A DNA stretch of 63,986 nt, filler included, from Stramenopiles sp. TOSAG23-3 (lineage: Eukaryota), in assembly GCA_900128585.1 (NCBI GenBank). It is 4 parts of 4 records of this genome, joined end to end, with 100 filler letters (N's around TTAATTAATTAA, not from the genome) between each part and the next. Parts side by side here need not be neighbours in the genome. Positions count along the whole stretch, not along the records: positions 16,517 to 32,921 come from LT642489.1; 3 more parts are not named here. One strand, written 5' to 3'. Under the pieces are notes generated by a model, which was given only the letters and a program-made list of their open reading frames with translations, made no database searches and was not told the DNA's origin. The translations under genes and the position numbers were made by a program. Shown here one piece after another: positions 18,004-44,912 of the stretch (positions are counted from its first letter, which is position 1; each line of letters opens with the position of its first letter).

Positions 18004-18265
18004 AAAAATACTAATCTGAAGTCGTAGAAAACAATTACCAATTTCAATTAAAGATTCATTTTCGTGGTAAATGAAGAGAGATAATTTTTCATTAATACTT
18101 AAATTAACAGTTAGACTTTTTGTTTTCAGAGTTTAAGAGTGTAATAAATTTTATTCGTGCGAAACAAGTTACTCCTAAGAAGTATAACTTTTAATTTAGA
18201 TCCTTCTAAATTAACAGCATACTATATTTACCCCGAGGTTCGGAGTCTCACTCAGGACCCGGTCT

Positions 18266-21200
18266 CTAAACTGCCAATTGTTCGTCAACCAAACTGTACA
18301 AGTCTTTCACCGTGTCGTCCTTTCCCTTTTGCGTCAAAAAGTTGCTATAGTGAACCGGGAATTGGTTCCGTGCCAACTCCACATCCATTCTATTTTCGTA
18401 GCACAGCCAGTGGCAAAATGGTATTAAAATGGAATCCTTCCATAGGTCAATTGCCTTATCCTTCAAAGGAAGAAAGTCTTTTGAATGCTTCAAGCTATTT
18501 AACCGTTTTTCAACCGCGGCATTGATTTCAGAAGGCGCCTTTGTGCCCTGTACCATCAATCTGCAACTAATTTCACGGATAGCTCGTAACATAATGTACC
18601 ACGCCGACTTCAACTTCATTTGCCTGCATGCGCCGTCCGCAGTGAAGCAAAGGGGCACAGAGCCCTCGCTTTGGTACTCTTGGGCGACTTCGCGCACAAT
18701 CTGGCGAAAATCTGTAGGTTTGCGAAACTCAAGGCTTTGAATGACCGTTTTGAACCCGTACATTCTACCAAACAAATAGGTTAGAATTGGGTGAGAAATA
18801 GGCACGGTAAAAAATGGACTCGTTAAACCAATCAAAACGATTCGATTCTCCTCTAATAGGACTATGTGCTGATGACTGACCGACTCGTATTCAAAAACAA
18901 TGGTGCAACCCGTAGCCAAAACAAAATTCACCAAGCTTTCCTTGGACTCCATGTTCAACAACATGTTGCACAAGTGGGTCGCAATTTCATTGGCAAATGA
19001 ATAGTGCTGGCTTGCAGGCAAGTGATCCCTAAAATTTCCCAGTTCTGACCAGGGAATGTACACTTTTAAATTCTTCGAGCCGGCGTACAAAGTGACGGAG
19101 CCATCGGAGAGTGTGAGAAATCCAAATTGTCCGTTTTCTCCGTTTGCTTTGTACGTCGGCAAAATCCTCGTAACCCCATCCAAGTCGAATTCTAACTCGG
19201 CGTCCTTGTCTCCATCTATCAAATTATCTTCCACCCCAGAAAACTTTTTCAGGCCAAAAGCACTTAGTTTTTTGCCCGCATTGTCCTTTTTCCACGACAG
19301 CCCCCTGCGTATGGTTTGCAGCAAATGGGGGGAACGCTTGTAAATCACATCGTCGGGTGTGCCCCTGGCATCCACTTTCGCCCTGAATCCTGCTACTAAG
19401 TCTTCCCCGGTCCCTTCCTCTTCCTGAACGGAAACATCAGGCTGGCCCATGCAGTAGTTGTAGTATTCTTCAGAAAAACGCCCGTAGTCGCATGCCTGGA
19501 AGTGCAAACTAACGTGAGATATTTGAAGCCATGCAATTGACCAAATTTTCTTCGTAAATTCTTTGTCTTGGTCTACTGAATCGTTCAGGGTGTTTCTGTC
19601 ACCTTCAAGTATTTCCTCGCACTTTCTCTTGAAGTCCACGAGGGCCTCTTTCTGAAGTCTCACGTTGAAATCAAAAACTCCACTGGGCGGGGGGCTGTTT
19701 GAGTGTTCAGCTTGGATCAATTTGACGTACTTTCTCTTCTCCTTCATGGCTTCCTCCAAAGGCTCTTTTAACCGTTTAATACGTGTCTGTACCTTCGATA
19801 TCTGTTTTTGCAACTGTTTAATTGGTTTTCCGATTTCGCCCGCCTTTCTAAGGGCGGCTTTAAACGTTTGGAATTCCTCCGGGTCGCAGTCTTCCGAGGG
19901 TTTGTTGAGCTTTTTACTCGTCCCAATTCGATACGGGCGCAGAATTTCATCTACCTGGGCTCCAATCGACTGTCTTATTTGGCTCAGTTCGGTGAATGTT
20001 TTGCTCAGCTCGGCTACTTCCGGTTCAATTTCCGCTCGTTTGGCGTCAATCTGCCGTTCGACGTCTCTTATTTGGATGTTGAGGGTCTTCACCTCCTCTC
20101 TGTCAACATGGCCAATTTGGCACAGTGTTGTCTCCAGCTTTGCATCAAATGAAACCTTTTCATCGCTGATCTTGGTTGCGAGCTCGATCCAAGCCATTCC
20201 CGCATTTGACATGACTTTCTTATGCAAACCCTCTGCAATAGTCAAGTGTCCCAACGGCCGTTCTATATACTTTCCAGTCAATTTGTTCTGCACTGTCGCC
20301 GGAGAAAAATATACACCTTCGTAAAAATAGACACCGTCCACGAAAATTTCAAAACACCCCAGGTTCTCGGCGGAGTCCGCTTGGCCGACAAACTCTTGCA
20401 GTGCAGGAGCGTGGGTATCGCACGCGTTTACTCCAAAAGCGTACGTGAAGGATAAATTGTTGGTCACCAGGATAGGGTCTGTATCAGTGCGGTAAACAGC
20501 GGTGCCATTTAAAAGTTTGCTGAAAAACGTTTTCGCCATCGTTTGATCGATGACAGCAAAACCAATGCGAGACACTTTCTCGATGCTTGTGCACGATTTC
20601 ACATCAATGGCCGTTCTTTGAACAAATGCATCGTACCCAGATTTTAAGTCTTTGCAAACGTCTTCAATACTCCGTCTGTACGTCTTCAAAATGCCAGAGC
20701 ACATAGACTCACTCATGTTCTGCACAAAGGTTTGGAACGCCGGCTGCCGCTCTGCCCATATGCTGGTCAGTTTTCGTTTCATGTACCTTACCTCAGTCTT
20801 TGACGGTGCTTCGCTGCTGCCAGCAACCACCCGTTTTCCCCCCTCGCCTTCCTCCACTGATTTCAGGTATTGGGAGTATTTTTCTTTGTCAAAATGCAAC
20901 GTCGATTTGCCAGTTTCGTTGGAGGGCAGCGAAGGTATGCTGTATATCTCTTTCCGGTGGTGATCATCGTAAAATAAGCTTCTTTCAGAAAAGGGAATTT
21001 GGTACCCCTTCCCGAACACCCGCTCAAATTTTCCGTCCTCGTTCTGAGCAACTTCTCGCCCCAAGGCTAATAGCTGAAGAAAGAGTTCATCCGTAAACCA
21101 GGCAGTCAAAAGCGGAGAGTTCTCGGTTGCACAAATAGTAGACACTTCAATCGTATCGTCCACTTGGTCAAATTTTTCTGCTTGTTGCTTCTGCAAACTG

Positions 21201-21838
21201 GCGAAATTCGATAAAACTGCCAAAGAGTTGCAGCTCAGCCCGGTTAAGTTTGCGTGGTCGCTACGAAAGTACAATGCGGCTGCAGAGACCAAAAATTGGT
21301 GCTTTAAACTGGCCGTATTCCTTACGCAAACTATGTTTTGTACCCCGTACAATTTTTTGAAATCATCGACTCTCGAAGGGAAAAAATTTATCTCGCAGAT
21401 CCCCCCTTTCTTCAGCAGAGATTTTTTCTCCTTGAAGGCTAACTTTTGGTTTTGCTGGTAGAGCACAAACGGTGAAGGTTGGTTTTCCAAACCATGGTAG
21501 ACTTCTCCTTTGACATATTCCTTGTCGTTATCAAAGTAAGGCGTGCTTTCGTGCAAATGCAGGAGTTTAAACGCCCTAAGTAGGGTCCCTTTTCCACCGC
21601 ACGGCAAAAAATTGGCGGTTAGCAAGTACCGCGATTCAACAAGAAAAGAATCTTTGCCTTGGCCCTTTTCGTTCTCCGCCAGCTGCGCCATTTTACTAGT
21701 TATACTATCTCGACCTTTCGTCGGCTCGTCTTCAAAAAACTCGTTCGTTTGCTTTATCAAATAGAGATCTTGGGATTCGCTGTTGTATGCATAAATACAG
21801 ACATAAAATCTTAAACTATAGAGTTTCCTTGCATACAT
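18266..21838 (-). CDS. Putative Trl1/Rnl1-family ATP-dependent RNA ligase with N-terminal P-loop kinase-like and 2H phosphoesterase-like domains
   Basis: C-terminal nucleotidyltransferase motifs KANG (I), SKN (Ia), FEY..HQHI (III), EGSV (IV), KLK (V) and YIMLRAIRE; N-terminal FLPCGGKGT; central HLT...SN. Start may be the ATG at 21691. Confidence 0.75.
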   Translation of the reverse strand: MYARKLYSLRFYVCIYAYNSESQDLYLIKQTNEFFEDEPTKGRDSITSKMAQLAENEKGQGKDSFLVESRYLLTANFLPCGGKGTLLRAFKLLHLHESTPYFDNDKEYVKGEVYHGLENQPSPFVLYQQNQKLAFKEKKSLLKKGGICEINFFPSRVDDFKKLYGVQNIVCVRNTASLKHQFLVSAAALYFRSDHANLTGLSCNSLAVLSNFASLQKQQAEKFDQVDDTIEVSTICATENSPLLTAWFTDELFLQLLALGREVAQNEDGKFERVFGKGYQIPFSERSLFYDDHHRKEIYSIPSLPSNETGKSTLHFDKEKYSQYLKSVEEGEGGKRVVAGSSEAPSKTEVRYMKRKLTSIWAERQPAFQTFVQNMSESMCSGILKTYRRSIEDVCKDLKSGYDAFVQRTAIDVKSCTSIEKVSRIGFAVIDQTMAKTFFSKLLNGTAVYRTDTDPILVTNNLSFTYAFGVNACDTHAPALQEFVGQADSAENLGCFEIFVDGVYFYEGVYFSPATVQNKLTGKYIERPLGHLTIAEGLHKKVMSNAGMAWIELATKISDEKVSFDAKLETTLCQIGHVDREEVKTLNIQIRDVERQIDAKRAEIEPEVAELSKTFTELSQIRQSIGAQVDEILRPYRIGTSKKLNKPSEDCDPEEFQTFKAALRKAGEIGKPIKQLQKQISKVQTRIKRLKEPLEEAMKEKRKYVKLIQAEHSNSPPPSGVFDFNVRLQKEALVDFKRKCEEILEGDRNTLNDSVDQDKEFTKKIWSIAWLQISHVSLHFQACDYGRFSEEYYNYCMGQPDVSVQEEEGTGEDLVAGFRAKVDARGTPDDVIYKRSPHLLQTIRRGLSWKKDNAGKKLSAFGLKKFSGVEDNLIDGDKDAELEFDLDGVTRILPTYKANGENGQFGFLTLSDGSVTLYAGSKNLKVYIPWSELGNFRDHLPASQHYSFANEIATHLCNMLLNMESKESLVNFVLATGCTIVFEYESVSHQHIVLLEENRIVLIGLTSPFFTVPISHPILTYLFGRMYGFKTVIQSLEFRKPTDFRQIVREVAQEYQSEGSVPLCFTADGACRQMKLKSAWYIMLRAIREISCRLMVQGTKAPSEINAAVEKRLNSLKHSKDFLPLKDKAIDLWKDSILIPFCHWLCYENRMDVELARNQFPVHYSNFLTQKGKDDTVKDLYSLVDEQLAV

Positions 21839-22080
21839 TTCTGAATGGATTCAATGTTTAGATAGATTTATTTATCATCTATATTTACTTTGAACTTTTT
21901 TCGTTCGTGCTGATGAGATGAGACGGACGAGGAGAGGAGAGAGAGGATGATTTTTTTTTCTTGTGGATGGATGATGAAGAATATTGTTGATGATTATAAT
22001 TTTTTACCCTATACTATGATGGTGCTATTATTATTTTATTGAATAAAAAATTATATTTTATTAATTATTTAAAAAAACAA

Positions 22081-22272
22081 CAAAGAAAGAAGAAGAAGAA
22101 AGAAGAAGAAGAAAAAAAAAGAAGAAGAAAAAAGAAGAAGAAAAAAGAAGAAGAAAAAAGAAGAAGAAGAAGAAAAAGAAAAAGAAAAAGAAGAGAAGGA
22201 AGAGAAGGAAGAGAAGGTAGAGAAGGAAGAGAAGGAAGAAAGAAGAAGAAAAGGAAGAAGAAAGAAAAAGAA
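22081..22272. repeat. Polypurine (GAA/GAAA; AGAGAAGGA x4) low-complexity tract
   Basis: About 190 nt almost purely A/G. Generates the spurious K/R/E-rich ORF 22039-22299. Confidence 0.9.
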
Positions 22273-22424
22273 GATGATCTTATAATATTTTCGGATTGAT
22301 GATGAAATTCTTCTTCTTTTTTTTTCTCTTTCTTTTTTTCTTCTTCTTCTTCAGCTCCTCTCCTCCTCCCACCATCACCATTAGAAAATCCTGAAAGAAG
22401 AAAAGAAGAAGAAGAAAGAAAGAA

Positions 22425-22455
<31 letters not shown>

Positions 22456-22709
22456 AAGAATTTAATCTAAGAAGCCTATTTTATGATGATATAGTGTTAA
22501 GTGTATTTTAAAAAAAGAGTAAGTATAGTTAATGTATGTTTATTATGTCACCGGAAGGGGAAATAAAATAAAACTAATATCATAACTGTTAAAACAATAT
22601 ATTTTTATTGAAAGAATCCAACTTAAGATATCATAATAAAAATCTAAAGGAACGTTCATGTTTGAAACGATAGACCAATGGCAAGTTGACGATTCATCCC
22701 CCATTTCCT

Positions 22710-27281: not shown

Positions 27282-28490
27282 CTATTCCTTGCCCGACTTC
27301 GCCTTCTTGGCGTCGTCTTTGTCCGGTTGGTCGCTTGGCTTCCTTTTGTTCGCGCGAATTGGCGTTCTGGGGAGACGAAATTCTGCGCACATCATCAACT
27401 TATTCGGCGCGACGTCCCTCACTTGACGCACGCTCCCGTTGCCGTTTGCAATTGGGTCGTGGCCAAGCACCTTTGCAACGCGCTCCTGAACGTCCTTTTC
27501 TGGGTCCGCGGACTTGCTAAAGCAGTACGTGTGCACCAATGGCATTTCAAAATCGTCCGGCCAATCGTCCATGCAACCATCAACAAATACGTCCAAAAAT
27601 TCGATCCCCAGAGCCGGCAAATTCATAAAAACTTGCGTAAACACTTTCCCCTCCGCTCGCAGCGAACGGACGAAATCGCGGCCATCCATGTTGTAGGCCT
27701 TGATGTTCTTCCCCAATTTGTTCAGCTTGATGTTCTCTACCAAATACTTGTGCGAACATGGGTTCAAATCGTTTGCAAAAACTTTGCAGCCCTTCTTGGC
27801 TGCCGGGACAGCAAAGGGGCCAATGCCGGCCATCATGTCGCAGACAACCTCGTCGGTCGACGGTTTCAAGCCTTTTACGATTCGTAAATGCTCGTGCTGC
27901 AGCCTACTGTTCCAATACACCTCCCTGAAATTGAACTTAAATCTACAGCCACTTTCGTTGACCATGACGTCGAGGTCGTCCTTGCCCGCAATAACCTCCA
28001 TCGGGAACGTCCTGAACTCTGTGGCTATGGAGCTCGTCTTGTGCACCACGGTCCGCACGTGCCTGTTTTTGTCTATGATGACTTTTCCGATCAAATCTTT
28101 GTGCGGCAAGTGCTCCTCCCTTAAATTGAAGTGTGCCACGTGGCCAATGGTCTCAAAGTGAGACGGGATCTCTTCTATCGTGCTCGGGAGCAGGCGTTTC
28201 AGCACTTCTTGGCTGTTGAAGTGGTCGTACCCAAGCTCCAGCTGGAAGTCCGTGATGGTGCCCCCGACCTCGTCAATAAACTTGCTGTCCTCCTCCGTCA
28301 GTCGAACGTCCTCTTGAAGAAGCACCAGCCGCATGTCCTTGGCGCCGTTTGGATCACGAACAATATTACGAACCTTCGGCATCTTCAACATGATGTTCTT
28401 CATCTTCTTTTGAAACGCACCGCAGTGTCGGCAGTGCGTCAAAATCGCTTTCACGCTCACGTGCTTAACAAACAGCTCCTTTGGGATCAT
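27282..28490 (-). CDS. TRM5: tRNA (guanine37-N1)-methyltransferase Trm5
   Basis: FETIGHVAHFNL, EFRTFPMEVIAG, VYWNSRLQHEH, DMMAGIGPFAVP, ANDLNP, MNLP, VRDVAPNKLMMC. Confidence 0.95.
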   Translation of the reverse strand: MIPKELFVKHVSVKAILTHCRHCGAFQKKMKNIMLKMPKVRNIVRDPNGAKDMRLVLLQEDVRLTEEDSKFIDEVGGTITDFQLELGYDHFNSQEVLKRLLPSTIEEIPSHFETIGHVAHFNLREEHLPHKDLIGKVIIDKNRHVRTVVHKTSSIATEFRTFPMEVIAGKDDLDVMVNESGCRFKFNFREVYWNSRLQHEHLRIVKGLKPSTDEVVCDMMAGIGPFAVPAAKKGCKVFANDLNPCSHKYLVENIKLNKLGKNIKAYNMDGRDFVRSLRAEGKVFTQVFMNLPALGIEFLDVFVDGCMDDWPDDFEMPLVHTYCFSKSADPEKDVQERVAKVLGHDPIANGNGSVRQVRDVAPNKLMMCAEFRLPRTPIRANKRKPSDQPDKDDAKKAKSGKE

Positions 28491-33393: not shown

Positions 33394-36300
33394 ATGAGAT
33401 GGAAAGTAGAAACCGCGGGTGCGCCAGACTTGGAAAAAAAGCGAGACCGCAACGGAGCGCGGCCCACCTCCGCGGCAAAGGATGATATCGTGGTTCGTCA
33501 AATAGTTGGGGAATTAGGAAGGCCGTTGTCGGCACCCTCCACCAGAGCGAAAAAAGATAGTGCAAATTATAGAGTTAGAAGACGGAAAAAAGTCACCGCA
33601 ATCATGCGCACCCCGAACTGGCGCAGGGATACGAAGAAATCAACGTCTGAAGACCTGGAACCATACCTTCAACAGTTGGAAAGGAAAAGGCTGCTCTTGC
33701 AGTTGAGGCGTACCGAGGGTGCCAGGCGCCCGGCAACGTCTTCGGGCTCACGGCTTGTCGAAAAAGGCACCGGAATGTTCAAAAGAACTGAGAAGATTTT
33801 GTCGTTTACGAAAAAGTATTCCGTTGGAACAAAGGCCATCGCTGCACGTGCAAAAGGCCTGGGGAGATGGTTGGAACACTCGGCGCTGCCGCTGAGCATA
33901 AGAGGGCGGCCACTTCTTGCAGACGATTTGAAGCATGGCCCGACGTCACAAATACACAACGTCTTCAAAAGCTGTTTTACAGAACTTACAAAAGAGTGCT
34001 CGCTCTTGTGTGGGGAACACGGGAAACTTATGGATAAAATCTGGAACTACTACGTGGAAGCTTTGGTGGAAGCGTACGAACTGAGGGGACAGGGGAGCCA
34101 AGGGAGCATATTGTCTTCGAGTGAATCGCTGGCGAGCAGCGTAGGGAAGGGGAAGCTGTTGAACAAAGCAAGTCCGAGGGTAACGACTGAGATCCAGGCC
34201 CCTGCTAAAAAAGTAGGAGATGAAAGTACTGGCCAAAAGTTCAAAGGGAAAGTTGACGACGGTGCTGCCACAATGCCGTCAAAGATTACCAGGCGCTCGT
34301 CACTTTTGCGAAAGAATCCAACGCTCTCGCCGATAGCCAAAGACGAACGGGCGCACAACAACCTAGAACACTTGAAACGCGATGTGCACGCATTGAAACG
34401 GTTGGGAATGGCTACGCCATTGTTCCATGCGCATGATGATCCATCCGTTTCCGGAGATGACCATGGATCGGAAAAAGGCATCAACAGAAAGGCATTAATT
34501 CCCGAGGCCCTTCAGAAGAGAATCCGCATCATTGCGGAGCAGGCCGTTTCCCTCCGTCGTTTGAGACAGAGCATATTCTCTGAGTACGTAAGCGGTATAA
34601 ACGCTGAAATAAAAGCCACTAACATGGAGCATACAGAGGATGCGTTCCAACGAGAGGTTGTAGATGTGCCCGAAATTCTGCAGTTAACGGACGAAGAAAA
34701 GCAAAAGAAAAATATGATGGAATTGGTGGAACGGCGCGCACGCGAGGCGAACGAACGTTTGAAAAAGAACAAAACACTGTCGACGAGTGAAAAGGCAAAA
34801 AAGATTGAAGAGGAAAAAGAAATGAAGCGGGCGTGTACCCTAATTCAGTCAGCGTACCGTCAGCGGCAAGCCCGGGAACGGATGCAGTTGCTGCGTAGCC
34901 AAGCGCTGTTGAAAGCAAACCGGTTTGATTTTAATGCATACATTCGATCAAGGACGACGAAGAAGGGGAAATGGCAAGGCTCAATGGAGCTCCATGATGC
35001 GACCAAAATTATGGAAGAGTACGTCTGGGAAAGCAAGCGGCTGGTGCGGGACATGAGTATGGACTGGTGGAAGCAAAAGAAAGAAACGCAAAGAAAGGAA
35101 GAACGTTTACAAGCGACGTGCGAACGAAAGAATGAATCGTTGGCGCAGATTCAGCACCAAGTTTCAGGCTTGATAAAGAGCGTGGGCGACTTTGTCGCAA
35201 CCCTCAATTTTGACAATAAGTCGGAAAAGGTAAAACGCGTCCTTGCCGAGTTACAGGATGAGCTGAACGATTCTAGTAAATCGTTCACCGACGACGGTGG
35301 GGAAAAGCATTGCCGTAAGGTGTGTGACTTAACGACAAAAATTTTGAACAGCAGCACAAAGGTTTACAAAATGAAGAGGGACAACGACATGCAAACCGAC
35401 GGCGACCCAAACGCAGAGCCGGTGGTAAAGAAGGCCGAGGTCAAAGAAACCAAGAAGAAAAAATTGTCCAAGAAACAAAAGTCTCGTTTGAAACGACGAC
35501 GGATAAAGTTGCAAATAGAGCTTGGTAGCCTTTCAGACTACGTTCACTTTGATAGCATTGTAAAAGGGACCCCAAGCACAATTGATAAGCTTCTTCGTTT
35601 TATTGACGAGGTTTACCATGAAAAGATTGAGTACGATGAAGTGGACGATAAGGAAAACCACAAACGGCACAGCATGGCAGAATTTGTGCACGATCATCTT
35701 TTTCGAAAGTATGGGCTCCGTTCCCTCGCAGACAAGCACACTTTCAATTTAGTCTCGAGCTTAAAATTGCACATCGATCACCCAAAAATTAAATTGTTCG
35801 CTCGTTTTTGCCAGTGTGGGATCAAACATTGCGATCCCTTGCCTCTTGCAGCGCTCGATTTTTTCTTGTACGTCGTGGCATATTTTCACACCTTGGAAGA
35901 CAAATACGGGAAGGATCTGCTGTTCACCGACCCGGACATTCCCACGAAAACATTGATGAACGTTCAGTCGGCTCTGTATGCTGTGCCCACCGTTATGGGC
36001 GTACTGCTAAACAACGGACCCAAAATGACTGGTGGGCTAGAGCTGGACCAGCTGAAAATTATGTTCAACGTCAAACTGAAAGTTAAAGAAATGTCGTTCA
36101 AGCACCACGAATCCCAGGTTATAGAGGTCGACATCCTGAACGACATTCTGATGAACTGCTTCGAAAGCATTTGGGACGCCTTGGAAGACATGTTGCGGAC
36201 TTTGTTTGCGGAAGGGGACGTCGACAGTGACGGTGTAATGACATTTGATGAGTTCAGTGACCTTGTCTTGAGTCTACATCCCGAAACAAGTGAAAACAAA

Positions 36301-36966
36301 CTGCACAGAATGTTTAAATTTGCCTTAAAGTCCTTGGATGACCCCACCAGTCATGAAATTACGCCTGATGCCTTTCTTCTTGCAGCGCAAGAACTCGGCT
36401 TTCTGTCAGGGGATCACAAAACATTCATGCCACCCAGGCCGATGAAAATGAGTGAGCTTATCGGTAAATCGGATGATGGGAACGACGTTGGAGAATTATG
36501 GGCCCTTCAAAAGGAGCACGATGCCTCTCAGTACACTGGAAAAGAATTAACGGATGCGGAATGGACCCAGCAACGCGCTCAGAAGAAAGAAAAACAGTTC
36601 GAAAAGCAATTTGAAGTTCACGAACAAACCTGGACAGATGTGAAGGGGCACTTGGATGCGAACAAAGAAGCTCTGGAAAACCTCAAGGATGACCCAATGT
36701 TGAAAGAAAAGGTAGATGAAATCCACGTTCTGCGAACACTCCTGGAGGATCAAATTGAAAACAAACAAGATGCTAAAGAGGCGAGAAGTACGCTTCATAA
36801 ATTGAATAGACGAGTCTCGAACATACCCCTTCTGAACGAAGAAGAAATGGCCGCGCTAGAACAAATTGTTGCAGTCGACCAAGGAGACGATAGCGATTTG
36901 GATGAAGACCTCGAGGATCACAGGGAACCTAAAGAGGAGGAACGGGAAGAGGGAACGGGGTTGTGA
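33394..36966 (+). CDS. Probable flagellar protein: axonemal dynein light-chain-like segment, IQ motif, EF-hands
   Basis: CFTELTKECSLLCGEHGKLMDKIW (p28/AXDND1-like); IQ LIQSAYRQRQAR; EFVHDHLFRKYGLRSLA...IKLFARF block; EF-hand DVDSDGVMTFDEF. Confidence 0.65.
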   Translation: MRWKVETAGAPDLEKKRDRNGARPTSAAKDDIVVRQIVGELGRPLSAPSTRAKKDSANYRVRRRKKVTAIMRTPNWRRDTKKSTSEDLEPYLQQLERKRLLLQLRRTEGARRPATSSGSRLVEKGTGMFKRTEKILSFTKKYSVGTKAIAARAKGLGRWLEHSALPLSIRGRPLLADDLKHGPTSQIHNVFKSCFTELTKECSLLCGEHGKLMDKIWNYYVEALVEAYELRGQGSQGSILSSSESLASSVGKGKLLNKASPRVTTEIQAPAKKVGDESTGQKFKGKVDDGAATMPSKITRRSSLLRKNPTLSPIAKDERAHNNLEHLKRDVHALKRLGMATPLFHAHDDPSVSGDDHGSEKGINRKALIPEALQKRIRIIAEQAVSLRRLRQSIFSEYVSGINAEIKATNMEHTEDAFQREVVDVPEILQLTDEEKQKKNMMELVERRAREANERLKKNKTLSTSEKAKKIEEEKEMKRACTLIQSAYRQRQARERMQLLRSQALLKANRFDFNAYIRSRTTKKGKWQGSMELHDATKIMEEYVWESKRLVRDMSMDWWKQKKETQRKEERLQATCERKNESLAQIQHQVSGLIKSVGDFVATLNFDNKSEKVKRVLAELQDELNDSSKSFTDDGGEKHCRKVCDLTTKILNSSTKVYKMKRDNDMQTDGDPNAEPVVKKAEVKETKKKKLSKKQKSRLKRRRIKLQIELGSLSDYVHFDSIVKGTPSTIDKLLRFIDEVYHEKIEYDEVDDKENHKRHSMAEFVHDHLFRKYGLRSLADKHTFNLVSSLKLHIDHPKIKLFARFCQCGIKHCDPLPLAALDFFLYVVAYFHTLEDKYGKDLLFTDPDIPTKTLMNVQSALYAVPTVMGVLLNNGPKMTGGLELDQLKIMFNVKLKVKEMSFKHHESQVIEVDILNDILMNCFESIWDALEDMLRTLFAEGDVDSDGVMTFDEFSDLVLSLHPETSENKLHRMFKFALKSLDDPTSHEITPDAFLLAAQELGFLSGDHKTFMPPRPMKMSELIGKSDDGNDVGELWALQKEHDASQYTGKELTDAEWTQQRAQKKEKQFEKQFEVHEQTWTDVKGHLDANKEALENLKDDPMLKEKVDEIHVLRTLLEDQIENKQDAKEARSTLHKLNRRVSNIPLLNEEEMAALEQIVAVDQGDDSDLDEDLEDHREPKEEEREEGTGL

Positions 36967-37137: not shown

Positions 37138-38298
37138 TCAGTAGTAGCTAAGCTCGTGGTTTTTCAAAAAGTAAAATTGATGGGTCATCTCGTTTCGTTT
37201 AGGAAAGACTTGGCGATGCTGAATATGGATTCTCAAGTTTCGGAAATACTCTTTTAACGCATCGTTTGCCTCTTCCGCGGCGGCGTCCTCGCCGTCACAA
37301 ACAGCACCTGTTACGTCATCACGATTACCCCCCGATGACAACGAGTTCAGCGTGCGGTCGATCAGCCCTTCCAAGACATTACTACTCACTGTATTGCTCA
37401 GTACCCTGGTGACGCCTTGTACGCAGTGCCTCGACGTTCCGGTAGCAATCATAACGTCGCCACTTTTTAATCGAATAGCCATAGGCTTTGCGTCTTTTGT
37501 CTCGCCACCTACTAGAATGACGGCATCGTTCAGCAATGAGAGGCTGATTATGGGGGCTGCTTGATCGGGCTCTATGTCCCTTTTGTGTCCGGCAACTCGA
37601 TCTAACTCCGTGTGGAAATGTACAATTGACGTTTCAGGGTAAAATGGTTTTTTGCCCGCTACACCCGCTTGAAGAACTGATCGAGCAATGTGCGACGCTA
37701 AAAGTGCCAAAGAGGCAGGGTAGGGACTGAAATGCCCCGTGCCTTCGACACCGCTACTGTTCTGGTGGTATTCCATTTTTTCCCAGTCTATATGGTAGCC
37801 ATAGCTTGCCCACTTCAACGCTGACATCTTCTTCTTTGCATACGTTTTGCTTTTTCCTGGTCTGGTCTCTTTGACAAATTGCTCGTATAAATTTTCAGTA
37901 AATAAGTTTTCCGGTAGATTCGTTTTGCAAACGGTTGGGGATAATAAATCCCTCATAATGTGGTGAGACCAGAACACTTGCTGCACCACTGTCAAACACT
38001 GCGGAATTATGATGAGGCCGTTTCTTTTGTCCTCCTTGTTTGGAGTGTTGTAGCTAAACGCCTTAGTGATGTCTCCGAACGTTGGCAAATACTTCTCAAT
38101 TCCATTGTGACTTTTTTTGTCCGAGGGTAAATCCGGTTCTATCCTATAACTTTTAAAATGCTTGTCTCTGTACAGCGAAAAGTCCACAATTTTCAGTGCA
38201 AGCAGCTCTCTGTGATTGTTGTCTTTCAAGGCTTTCTTCAGCCTCTTTTCAAACGTGGTATAAACGTTGTCTTCCTGAAAGTCTACTTTTAAGCTCAT
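37138..38298 (-). CDS. ALKBH1-like 2OG-Fe(II) dioxygenase fold, probably catalytically degenerate
   Basis: LKWASYGYHIDW, PIISLSL, VGGETKD..PMAIRLKSGDVMI and RIHIQHRQV match ALKBH1; the HxD...H ligands read HKR...Q. Confidence 0.8.
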   Translation of the reverse strand: MSLKVDFQEDNVYTTFEKRLKKALKDNNHRELLALKIVDFSLYRDKHFKSYRIEPDLPSDKKSHNGIEKYLPTFGDITKAFSYNTPNKEDKRNGLIIIPQCLTVVQQVFWSHHIMRDLLSPTVCKTNLPENLFTENLYEQFVKETRPGKSKTYAKKKMSALKWASYGYHIDWEKMEYHQNSSGVEGTGHFSPYPASLALLASHIARSVLQAGVAGKKPFYPETSIVHFHTELDRVAGHKRDIEPDQAAPIISLSLLNDAVILVGGETKDAKPMAIRLKSGDVMIATGTSRHCVQGVTRVLSNTVSSNVLEGLIDRTLNSLSSGGNRDDVTGAVCDGEDAAAEEANDALKEYFRNLRIHIQHRQVFPKRNEMTHQFYFLKNHELSYY

Positions 38299-42695: not shown

Positions 42696-44912
42696 CTACT
42701 TTAAGCCCATTACTTCAAGCAACAAGTCCACCAGACTATTCAACCACACTCTGTCATTCCCCATATCTTGGAGTAAGTGAGTGGGGAGCCTGGAATATCC
42801 TACTTTCATCCCAACAATGGCCCCAACAATCTGGGCATTTCCGCTTGTGTCTCCTCCTTCGGACACAATTTTCATAATGGCGTCAATAAAGTTTGGATCA
42901 TTAATGTGAGCAGCCCAGTACGCGACGCCCACCGTTTTGAAAGCGTCTTTGCAGTGCTCCAGATCATCCAATTGCAGAGGAACCACCCCATCTTCCACTT
43001 CCAGAAACAGCAAAGTTCGCAACTCTTCTTGGTAATCGTTGAACCGTGAATCCTTGCAAGCAAGACTAAAGCATTCTAGCTGCAACTTCACCATCCCGGG
43101 ACGGTCTTTCTGTAAATTTGGGGAGTTTAGCATCTTTGCTATTAAATTGTTCAAACACACAGAGGCGGCAAGCGCTTTGGTAGATTTGTGAGTTATTGCA
43201 TTCGCAATCTTAGTTCCGTGCGTCATTTTATCAATGTCTGTAAAGTGTCGTAAAGCCATGGGCATTGCCCTTAGCACCGCGTCATTGTTGTCGGAATGGG
43301 GGTTATCTTTGTGGTCCCCGTACACTCGCTTTGCGTGGTGCTGCGCGTTGAGAATATAATCTTCTATGTCCCCCTGGACCACAGATTGCATGTAATTGCT
43401 TAATCGATGTGGCAATTTGTCGATGTCGGGAAAGCCGCATCGAATCATATGTGCCAGTCGATACGCCATGTCCTTTTCTTCAACCCTTCCTCCGAACGCG
43501 GCGAAGGATGCCATTGCCGTGATAAAATAATCAAAGGTAATGCTCCACTGCCCAGGCCTGTACGGAAACCTCTTTTTTATTCTCTTCAGCAAAGATCCGT
43601 GCTTGGAAGTTAGTTTTCGGGATTTAATCTTGTCGCCGTACAGGTCTTTTATCTGCTTCTTGCTCAGCCCGAATGCGGGTGAGCCCACCACAGACCCCAT
43701 GCATGCGCCGTACACAAACCCTTTTACACGCTGCAACAACTTGTCCCTGCCGACTGCCGAGTCAGCTATGCAGTGTTTTATGTAAGAGGGGTGCCGGGGA
43801 AGGGGTGTCAATGGGGGAGAGATCATTTCAATAGAGTAAAAGGAAGGGAAACCGTGCGAGCATGCAGAGCACAAGCACGGGGGTGCGTTGGCGTAGCCCA
43901 GGCTGAACAGTATTGTCGCGCCGGTCTGGCGCGTCGGGTCCTTGCTATTGGGCGCAGTTCCATACCGAGCCCGATGCAGCCCTCGAGTAACCGATTTAAG
44001 GCGAGGGTGCTCAACAAACCGATCGCACGCAGTACACCAACATGCCATTGAAGGGGAGACGCTGATAACGTGGTTCTTCTCTTCCCTGTGGTTCTGGATA
44101 TACCTATCACAGTAAATACCCCAGCAAGATGGCCACAAGCATACCCACGCGTTAAGCCCGCGGCATCGATTGAGTGGTGTGTGCCTTTCGCAGCAAGTAA
44201 TGCACGCCTTTTTTAAATTGCTGGCGACATATTTAGAAATTGGCAACTCGCCAAACTCTGCGTCCGTAAAATCGGAGTTAAAGTTGTAAGTTCTATCGTT
44301 CCTCACCAACCTATTCATTTCGTCCATAATTTTATCCAGATGTTTGCAGGACTTGATTTGGAAGTCTAGCATCCTGGCGGCCAAAGCTTCTGTCTCTTTG
44401 TCCAGTTTATCTTTGTCGTCTTCTTTTGTTTCTGGGACATATATCAAGGTTACTTCTGTGATATCGGGTGGCCTATCGTCTACGTGTACAATACTCAAAC
44501 TATTTACGCAGTGACGCTCATTTGAAACGGTTCTAAACTCACCTACATAAACTTTCCCTACGTATATTCCACAATTTTGGCAAACTGACAGTGCGACTTC
44601 TTTGTCGTTCTCGTACTGAGTCTCGGCGTTCAACAAACTGTTTTCATAGCACATCTGAAACGATGCCCAGCCTGCTCCTCCGTCAAACTTTGCCTTGGAT
44701 GCGAACAGAGGCTTTTCGCACCCTTTGCAAGCAAAATATCCTTTTCTGGGGAACTTATGCAAATATTTCCCCCTCCACGGCGGTTCATCGACCCTTTCGA
44801 TCAGAGTTTTGAATTCGGCCGCAGTGAGACAGTCCCTCCATAAACTCTCGCTTTTACCTCCAGGGAAGGATCGTTTTACAGCCGTAAATTTACCGGGAGA
44901 TAATGCTGCCAT
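42696..44912 (-). CDS. MsrB(SelR)-like + ZnF-UBP + ADP-ribosylglycohydrolase-like fusion protein
   Basis: FACKGC..PLF..KAKFD..GW.SF, CQNC and RHCVNS (MsrB); CITC..WVCL..C..YCDRY..H..H..WCTACD (ZnF-UBP); RVKGFVYGACMG, GQWS, NNDAVLR, ITH and GGDTSGNAQIVGAIVG (ARH). Confidence 0.8.
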   Translation of the reverse strand: MAALSPGKFTAVKRSFPGGKSESLWRDCLTAAEFKTLIERVDEPPWRGKYLHKFPRKGYFACKGCEKPLFASKAKFDGGAGWASFQMCYENSLLNAETQYENDKEVALSVCQNCGIYVGKVYVGEFRTVSNERHCVNSLSIVHVDDRPPDITEVTLIYVPETKEDDKDKLDKETEALAARMLDFQIKSCKHLDKIMDEMNRLVRNDRTYNFNSDFTDAEFGELPISKYVASNLKKACITCCERHTPLNRCRGLNAWVCLWPSCWGIYCDRYIQNHREEKNHVISVSPSMACWCTACDRFVEHPRLKSVTRGLHRARYGTAPNSKDPTRQTGATILFSLGYANAPPCLCSACSHGFPSFYSIEMISPPLTPLPRHPSYIKHCIADSAVGRDKLLQRVKGFVYGACMGSVVGSPAFGLSKKQIKDLYGDKIKSRKLTSKHGSLLKRIKKRFPYRPGQWSITFDYFITAMASFAAFGGRVEEKDMAYRLAHMIRCGFPDIDKLPHRLSNYMQSVVQGDIEDYILNAQHHAKRVYGDHKDNPHSDNNDAVLRAMPMALRHFTDIDKMTHGTKIANAITHKSTKALAASVCLNNLIAKMLNSPNLQKDRPGMVKLQLECFSLACKDSRFNDYQEELRTLLFLEVEDGVVPLQLDDLEHCKDAFKTVGVAYWAAHINDPNFIDAIMKIVSEGGDTSGNAQIVGAIVGMKVGYSRLPTHLLQDMGNDRVWLNSLVDLLLEVMGLK

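Follow-up and report, generated by a model that had tools for sequence, protein, structure and literature searches.

Among the closest known counterparts of the protein considered here are the Trl1-type tRNA ligases. In fungi, plants and Trypanosoma brucei these enzymes have the canonical order ligase, kinase, cyclic phosphodiesterase (CPD), as set out in PMC10598085; in addition, a sealing-only Trl1, with healing in trans, is proposed for Mucorales in PMC10946435, and healing in trans is likewise proposed in PMC3400036 for BfRNL, the stand-alone ligase of Branchiostoma (amphioxus). In this study, we analyzed 63,986 nucleotides of Stramenopiles sp. TOSAG23-3 (GCA_900128585.1), a stretch made of parts of four records joined end to end and referred to below as the window. 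An uninterrupted open reading frame (ORF) on its minus strand (18266-21838; 1190 codons plus stop) encodes a protein of 1190 residues with a ligase domain at its C-terminus. A preliminary description of this gene had proposed a trifunctional RNA repair or tRNA-splicing enzyme, in which a kinase, a 2H phosphoesterase and a coiled coil precede the ligase. We propose instead, with a probability of roughly 0.55, that the protein is a sealing-only 5'-phosphate RNA ligase of the Trl1/Rnl1 lineage, located at the C-terminal end of a long polypeptide whose lineage-specific N-terminal extension is catalytically dead.

The protein has the same motif series as the Trl1/Rnl enzymes (RGL, KF, KxNG, SK, ExE..H, EGxV, KxK and an RxxRE helix), but the ligase is C-terminal (residues 829 to 1190 of 1190), whereas the order in those enzymes is ligase, kinase, CPD. 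It also differs from them in having no canonical P-loop kinase, one HxT motif instead of two, and some 170 residues of coiled-coil-like spacer between the modules. By analogy, our reading would make it functionally the same as the Mucorales Trl1 and BfRNL, that is, a member of the Trl1 ligase family that has no working healing domains; however, those are short, ligase-only polypeptides, and some 800 additional N-terminal residues are present here. Healing modules ahead of a C-terminal ligase are found in bacterial Pnkp of the Pnkp-Hen1 pair, which according to PMC3675462 consists of an N-terminal 5' kinase, a central end-healing phosphoesterase and a ligase. The Pnkp phosphoesterase is, however, a Mn-dependent metallophosphoesterase and not a 2H enzyme, and no sequence relation to Pnkp was found. 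The Pnkp ligase belongs to a different clade from the Trl1-type ligases. T4 Rnl1, a member of the same Pfam family (RNA_lig_T4_1) as the protein studied here, is stated in PMC12440814 to join 2'-OH/3'-OH ends and not 2'-phosphate ends; unlike T4 Rnl1, our protein retains the Trl1-type RxxR.

The ligase domain and its relatives

Profile searches and the conservation of catalytic residues both identified the ligase. RNA_lig_T4_1 (PF09511) matched residues 845 to 1081 over profile positions 3 to 227 of 227, with an E value of 1.9e-5, and a HMMER search with residues 780 to 1190 against 1.84 billion representative proteins returned 175 proteins at E≤1e-3, of which 58 reached E≤1e-10 and 2 reached E≤1e-30. 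Nucleotidyltransferase motifs I (KxNG), Ia (SK), III (ExE), IV (EGxV) and V (KxK) are all present. The motif strings read RRGL (residues 844 to 847), GLKKF (KKF at 864 to 866), KANGE (897 to 901), GSKN (920 to 923), FEYE (982 to 985), HQHI (HQH at 989 to 991), EGSV (1058 to 1061), KLK (1075 to 1077) and WYIMLRAIRE (1080 to 1089), and the family-invariant set of RG, KF, KxNGE, GSKN, ExE, H, EGxV, KxK and Y..R..R is complete. Invariance was read from alignments A1, A3, A5 and A6, where A3 holds the ligase-only relatives including this domain and A6 is mixed; 19 columns are invariant in 25 ligase-only relatives plus the ligase protein, and these residues are likewise invariant in the 12 permuted and 22 tripartite relatives described below. 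On these sequence comparisons, we regard it as confirmed that the protein has an intact ligase domain, homologous to that of the tripartite tRNA ligases. The preliminary description was thus correct in assigning the C-terminus to a Trl1/Rnl1-type ligase with all of its catalytic motifs and the RxxR pair kept.

The link to Trl1 is transitive and passes through the tripartite relatives, because neither the protein alone nor profile A3 found a relevant solved structure by sequence search; a search of the PDB with the relative P0009 gave no relevant match, and one with the mixed profile A6 gave kinases only. The profile of the tripartite relatives matched the solved "tRNA ligase" 9r3w (E 7.4e-15), motif for motif across the ligase and into the IGCGKTT P-loop, with the family string llRaiRE placed under YRQWRE. 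In CtTrl1 from Chaetomium, R334 and R337 are described in PMC12440814 as holding a sulfate, which marks the pocket for the 2'-phosphate, and as setting the preference for a 2'-phosphate. R1085 and R1088 of the stramenopile protein are predicted to form the corresponding 2'-phosphate pocket, and Lys897 is predicted to be the residue that accepts adenosine monophosphate (AMP), a role that follows from the covalent nucleotidyltransferase mechanism.

It is most improbable that the C-terminal domain is some other covalent nucleotidyltransferase, such as a DNA ligase or a capping enzyme, or an inactive relic. Such an identity would fit the RNA_lig_T4_1 score of the protein, 25.1 bits against a gathering cutoff of 28.3, and the lack of a direct sequence match to any solved structure. 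However, the Pfam scan at E≤1 gave RNA_lig_T4_1 and no DNA-ligase or capping-enzyme family, two relatives, P0007 with 38.0 bits and P0039 with 30.4 bits, score above the RNA_lig_T4_1 cutoff, the profile of the tripartite relatives matches a solved tRNA ligase, and every invariant catalytic residue has been kept.

Of the 175 HMMER matches, 150 were listed, and local realignment of these retained 109 in which 200 or more positions were aligned. The majority (69) are ligase-only proteins of 400 to 520 residues; 22 have the order ligase-kinase-CPD, 8 have healing motifs ahead of the ligase and 10 belong to other classes. The Pfam matches of the 22 tripartite proteins were to DUF7920 (10), tRNA_lig_CPD (6), tRNA_lig_kinase (3) and RNA_lig_T4_1 (3). 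Motif scans, together with inspection of the sequences, identified, among the matches listed, 12 metagenomic relatives of 640 to 1040 residues whose healing modules lie before KxNG (P0040, P0059, P0100, P0124, P0130, P0152, P0010, P0028, P0017, P0039, P0084 and P0126). All 12 have two HxT motifs ahead of KxNG, spaced by 56 to 89 residues; half of them also have a canonical GxxGxGK[ST] no more than 35 residues from the N-terminus, two have variant P-loops, and the remaining four have the 2H pair only. Subthreshold Pfam matches were to AAA_33 (P0040 and P0152) and 2H-SAK (P0124), and the N-terminal profile of the 12 proteins matched the kinase PSTK with an E value of 6.6e-7 over the first 150 profile positions. 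As read from these motifs and profiles, the order kinase-2H-ligase or 2H-ligase is present in metagenomic relatives. The permuted order put forward in the preliminary description therefore holds for about 12 metagenomic proteins but is not confirmed for the modules of the ligase protein itself. These relatives share the ligase family, the C-terminal position of the ligase and the putative module order with the ligase protein, and in P0010 a long spacer likewise separates the 2H module from the ligase; however, the permuted proteins have recognizable modules, canonical or nearly canonical P-loops and two HxT motifs, and the N-terminus of the ligase protein matches none of them.

A word-based homolog search with the whole protein returned only the protein itself, and one with an alignment of the permuted proteins returned only three proteins, all of them already known. 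In the literature searched, from which supplements were outside the scope, no eukaryotic kinase-2H-ligase order is described. An earlier description is nevertheless possible, because the Pfam name 2H-SAK points to "Swiss Army Knife" repair proteins, a name that PMC7824862 credits to Burroughs & Aravind 2016. As to the suggestion that the architecture had not been described before, no eukaryotic description was found, but the order occurs in metagenomic proteins and Pfam has the 2H-SAK family.

In a maximum-likelihood tree built quickly from the ligase domains, the protein grouped with P0005 and the long-branched P0043 (Shimodaira-Hasegawa-like approximate likelihood ratio test [SH-aLRT] 98). 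The enclosing clade (SH-aLRT 96) has 23 rows: the ligase protein, 11 tripartite, 6 permuted and 4 ligase-only relatives and 1 other. The permuted relatives do not form one clade in this tree; therefore, either the module order was altered on several occasions or the tree lacks resolution.

A viral relative was also observed. An IMG/VR contig of 405 kb, which is the size of a giant virus genome, encodes at L002:2887-5343 (+) an 818-residue protein with the classical order ligase-kinase-2H, and this gene adjoins an RNA-polymerase-like ORF. Viral scans with the N-terminus of the ligase protein and with P0155, its nearest relative, gave no match.

The N-terminal extension

The protein has a P-loop-like string, YLLTANFLPCGGKGT (residues 71 to 85, 21584-21628), which contains FLPCGGKGT, 32 residues past Met50, and further strings, VCVRNTAS (168 to 177) and FRSDHANL (191 to 198), follow it. 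The Walker A pattern GxxxxGK[ST] has no match anywhere in the protein; by comparison with that motif, FLPCGGKGT has Phe at the first Gly and Gly at the Ser/Thr after GK. Searches for homology were negative. Residues 1 to 790 had no phmmer match at E≤10 among the 150 listed relatives; Pfam at E≤10 gave no kinase or 2H family for three N-terminal segments, the lone row being MYG1_exonuc (E 0.062); the ESM Atlas gave no usable match to residues 50 to 560 or 420 to 565; and a word-based search with residues 50 to 560 found nothing among shorter proteins. Alignment with kinase profiles, shallow or deep, by hhalign covered 21 to 22 columns around the P-loop only, where LPCGGKG fell under the family P-loop (P 0.02 to 0.06). 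In a semi-global comparison with a position-specific scoring matrix (PSSM), the kinase-like stretch had a z score of -0.32 relative to 300 shuffles and showed no gain over 300 decoys from real proteins, and an AlphaFold model of the N-terminus made without an alignment was uninformative, with a mean predicted local distance difference test (pLDDT) score of 30.7. The proposed N-terminal kinase is therefore not upheld. We consider the descent of residues 50 to 215 from a kinase to be doubtful, and the origin of residues 50 to 415 as a whole, as judged from sequence, is unproven.

The 2H-like stretch is a closer case. The preliminary description had noted that the second motif, GHLTIAEG, is present and that the first HxT reads SFT, and this is correct: the first position is S463-F-T (residues 463 to 465, 20444-20452), with Ser for His, and the sole HxT in the stretch is H531-L-T (residues 531 to 533, 20240-20248), so that one catalytic His of two is kept. 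In three modes, MAFFT placed RIGF, LSFT, the hairpin-like FEIFVDGVYFYEGVYF and GHLTI under the YxGY, HxT, hairpin and HxT of the family. MAFFT compared the stretch with 12 true 2H modules and with the relative P0154, and the alignment used for AlphaFold comprised 12 true 2H modules plus one relative; all 14 rows of alignment A4 keep the motif 1 Thr, the motif 2 His and Thr and one Phe farther downstream. Attempts to align the N-terminus with full-length relatives or with whole N-terminal modules by MAFFT gave misalignments, and alignment-guided folding was therefore limited to this stretch. Residues 416 to 575 modeled with the 2H alignment had a pLDDT of 48.5, exceeding 60 only at residues 495 to 530, and a predicted template modeling score of 0.38; the model showed no strand at the position of the first motif and no 2H topology. 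For this model, Foldseek gave no match at E≤0.001, and the matches listed include no 2H enzyme; its best matches were unrelated tyrosine phosphatases (E≥0.16), which for a model of such low confidence are meaningless. Against 2H profiles, shallow or deep, hhalign gave P 0.08 to 0.4 with the match confined to the second HxT, and its N-terminal alignments overall covered only 16 to 22 columns around the P-loop or that motif. The semi-global PSSM comparison was again negative (z -0.29 relative to 300 shuffles, with no gain over the 300 decoys). A central 2H domain, whose fold had been expected at residues 410 to 555 or so, is thus not confirmed by homology searches, hhalign, the PSSM comparison, AlphaFold or Foldseek.

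Further information came from P0155 (745 residues, from a 2.5-kb contig), which is the longer form within the 90% cluster of P0005. BLASTP aligned it with residues 525 to 1167 of the ligase protein (2e-67, 30% identity) across the coiled-coil spacer, with RPLG--HLTI opposite RPFGRWHLTL. P0155 begins about 17 residues ahead of a YYIGF strand and has no kinase-like part. Its first 2H-motif position reads AAVT (A-V-T), and the first His is absent; therefore, the lineage has a common 2H-like stretch that lacks this residue. Because P0155 shares the stretch and is also without the first His, our best guess is that residues 416 to 560 are a decayed 2H module, and we put descent from a 2H module at slightly short of an even chance. 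It is very improbable that either N-terminal segment, the kinase-like or the 2H-like one, is catalytically active.

These results bear directly on the trifunctional enzyme envisaged earlier, in which the order would be kinase-2H-coiled coil-ligase, the kinase would be active and the CPD would be either active in a noncanonical way or dead. It would be in keeping with the relatives of the same order that have canonical motifs (GxxGxGK[ST] in six, variant P-loops in two, and two HxT in 12 of 12), with the match of their N-terminal profile to PSTK, with the placement of LPCGGKG under the family P-loop by hhalign at P 0.02, and with the resemblance, on reading of the sequences, of VCVRNT and RSDH to the family strings VVIQxNT and KNSH. 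However, the P-loop lacks both the first Gly and the Ser/Thr of Walker A, Ser replaces His in 2H motif 1, no method gave significant similarity to a kinase or a 2H enzyme, AlphaFold guided by true 2H modules did not produce a 2H topology, and the nearest relative, P0155, has no kinase-like part at all. On this evidence, a trifunctional enzyme is very unlikely.

The opposite possibility is that the N-terminal 800 residues have no kinase or 2H ancestry, that the motifs arose by chance, and that new lineage-specific domains for targeting, RNA binding or scaffolding became fused to the ligase. We consider this unlikely, albeit a serious contender. PSSM z scores of about -0.3 against both shuffles and decoys, and hhalign P values of up to 0.4, are at chance level; Pfam at E≤10 and the unrelated tyrosine phosphatases returned by Foldseek point the same way; and since ligase-only proteins make up 69 of the 109 relatives that align well, a ligase that later gained an unrelated extension would have had a common enough starting point. 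On the other hand, HLT[IL] and its RP.G lead-in have been kept between the ligase protein and P0155 at 30% identity, the motif 1 Thr, motif 2 His and Thr and downstream Phe of A4 are invariant in all 14 rows, the order and spacing of the motifs agree with those of the permuted family, and the ligase belongs to a clade that is rich in multidomain forms.

The region between the 2H-like stretch and the ligase consists of two halves divided by a Gly/Pro/Ser-rich loop near residues 637 to 652. Weak Pfam matches to coiled-coil families fall within residues 555 to 745 or so, a crude heptad score has its maximum at residues 662 to 709, and BLASTP found the spacer to be common to the ligase protein and P0155. 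A coiled coil over about residues 575 to 745 is plausible from these features, and the long coiled coil of the preliminary description is retained at that strength.

On the reading that we favor, a sealing-only ligase behind a dead extension, Lys897 would attack adenosine triphosphate (ATP) to form ligase-AMP, the AMP would be handed to the 5'-phosphate of the RNA, and the 3'-OH of the other RNA end would attack the activated phosphate; Arg1085 and Arg1088 would favor ends that bear a 2'-phosphate. The approximately 800 residues ahead of the ligase would supply no working healing activities, the P-loop-like string would be unable to bind Mg-nucleoside triphosphate canonically, and the coiled coil, we guess, would be a spacer or an oligomerization arm. 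Because the catalytic residues are absent from the kinase-like and 2H-like segments, any kinase and CPD steps that the pathway requires would be carried out in trans by other proteins. A Pfam scan of 21 long ORFs in the 64-kb window found no RtcB, Tpt1, Clp1 or separate polynucleotide kinase or CPD enzyme. A trifunctional enzyme is not borne out by a P-loop without its first Gly and Ser/Thr, by a single His, or by segments without significant similarity to either healing family.

Several observations weigh against this proposal. In addition to the Pfam score below the cutoff and the lack of a direct match to a solved structure, dependence on a 2'-phosphate is inferred from two conserved arginines. 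The N-terminal tests were of low power, since in the semi-global comparison nine left-out true members scored only z 0.8 to 4.0, with the ligase protein below all of them; the alignments were thin (14 rows); and residues 50 to 415 have no close relatives in the collections searched. Given this low power, a highly diverged, yet folded, kinase or 2H domain is possible. The motif remnants are also collinear with those of the family and have a similar spacing, the P-loop-like string being followed by HxT positions that are 68 residues apart (56 to 89 in the family). Finally, the transcription described below is likely but unproven, because DNA can occur in RNA libraries.

Gene, probable transcription and genomic context

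The ORF and all of the motif strings quoted in the preliminary description were found where it had placed them (Table 1). The 1190-residue protein is identical to an ORF product in a public eukaryote protein set, and the sole match in a scan of metagenome loci was an identical 4.6-kb contig (L001).

Table 1. Positions in the window of the ligase gene and of the features of its product
Feature	Residues	Position	Strand	Basis
Whole ORF	1-1190	18266..21838	-	ORF call; identical eukaryote gene model; RNA-library contigs 18153-21747
ATG of Met50, more likely start	50	21689..21691	-	Sequence reading; RNA contigs reach 21747, short of the first ATG
N-terminal region	50-415	20594..21691	-	No relatives detected; kinase-like at motif level only
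2H-like stretch (RIGFAVID, LSFT, FEIFVDGVYFYEGVYF, GHLTIAEG)	416-560	20159..20593	-	MAFFT against true 2H modules
Helical spacer, plausible coiled coil	about 575-745	19604..20116	-	Weak Pfam matches; heptad score; P0155 alignment
Conserved lead-in	about 765-828	19355..19546	-	BLASTP alignment with P0005/P0155 and P0010
Adenylyltransferase (ligase) domain	829-1081	18596..19354	-	Pfam; invariant columns; HMMER
Lys897 of KANG, predicted AMP acceptor	897	19148..19150	-	Motif I Lys invariant in every alignment
Arg1085-x-x-Arg1088 in WYIMLRAIRE, predicted 2'-phosphate pocket	1085-1088	18575..18586	-	Family-invariant; aligned via tripartite profile to 9r3w
C-terminal helical domain of ligase	1082-1190	18269..18595	-	HMMER and BLASTP cover up to FPVHY

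Translation is more likely to start at Met50, from where the protein begins MAQLAENEKG..., than at the first ATG (21836-21838), because codons 1 to 49 are AT-rich like the intergenic spacer upstream. The first ATG also lies beyond the end of the RNA-library contigs, which leave 21748-21838 uncovered; this is a weak hint only. If the first ATG were used, the 49 extra residues (MYARKLYSLRFYVCIYAY...; 21692-21838, minus strand) would form a basic, hydrophobic leader with a possible targeting role. Upstream of the gene, the spacer contains, at 22040-22480, a long purine/pyrimidine low-complexity tract with GAA/CTT-type runs that yields a spurious plus-strand ORF of 86 residues rich in Lys, Glu and Arg.

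Assembly of four RNA libraries from two marine studies gave contigs that tile 18153-21747 with zero joints, and the ORF is therefore colinear with the content of these libraries. The contigs provide good, inconclusive support for transcription of the gene. They contain eight variant sites, four synonymous and four not, which are too few for inference.

Three other genes of RNA-modification type share the 64-kb window with the ligase, a co-presence in the joined window only: a UPF0020/RMKL-like methyltransferase (274-1809), a TRM5/TYW2 methyltransferase (27282-28490) and an AlkB-like 2-oxoglutarate-Fe(II) oxygenase (37138-38298), all on the minus strand. A single ORF at 42696-44912 (minus strand) joins SelR (methionine sulfoxide reductase B) to an ADP-ribosylglycohydrolase domain. 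A second ORF of 1190 residues, at 33394-36966 on the plus strand, is rich in charged helical stretches and has no Pfam family at E≤1e-5; it was considered as a relative of the ligase protein and rejected, since the sequences are unrelated and the equal length is coincidental.

Implications for heal-and-seal pathways

Trl1-type ligases have been known as ligase-kinase-CPD proteins of fungi, plants and trypanosomes or as the ligase-only proteins of Mucorales and amphioxus. The matches reported here show the family to be widespread in environmental sequences, where it has several domain orders, including kinase-2H-ligase. The permuted relatives with canonical motifs are natural enzymes that are open to direct testing. 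For the ligase gene itself there is a caution, in that a motif-level resemblance to kinase and 2H modules failed under testing.

It can be envisioned that the ligase protein, P0155 and the kinase-2H-ligase proteins from metagenomes jointly stand for an undescribed heal-and-seal architecture, eukaryotic or viral, that was assembled independently and in which the healing modules precede a Trl1-type ligase, as in bacterial Pnkp, with a 2H enzyme as the esterase, and that in the present lineage these modules have decayed to pseudoenzymes that would hold RNA ends, by means of the one His and the GK loop, on a coiled-coil arm and feed an active ligase that reads the 2'-phosphate. We consider this distinctly unlikely as a whole.

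In conclusion, the protein is a Trl1-type ligase whose unusual N-terminal extension is probably dead. In this one marine protist, an intact ligase would thus lie behind a long extension without working healing sites, a finding of relevance to the evolutionary assembly and dismantling of heal-and-seal pathways.

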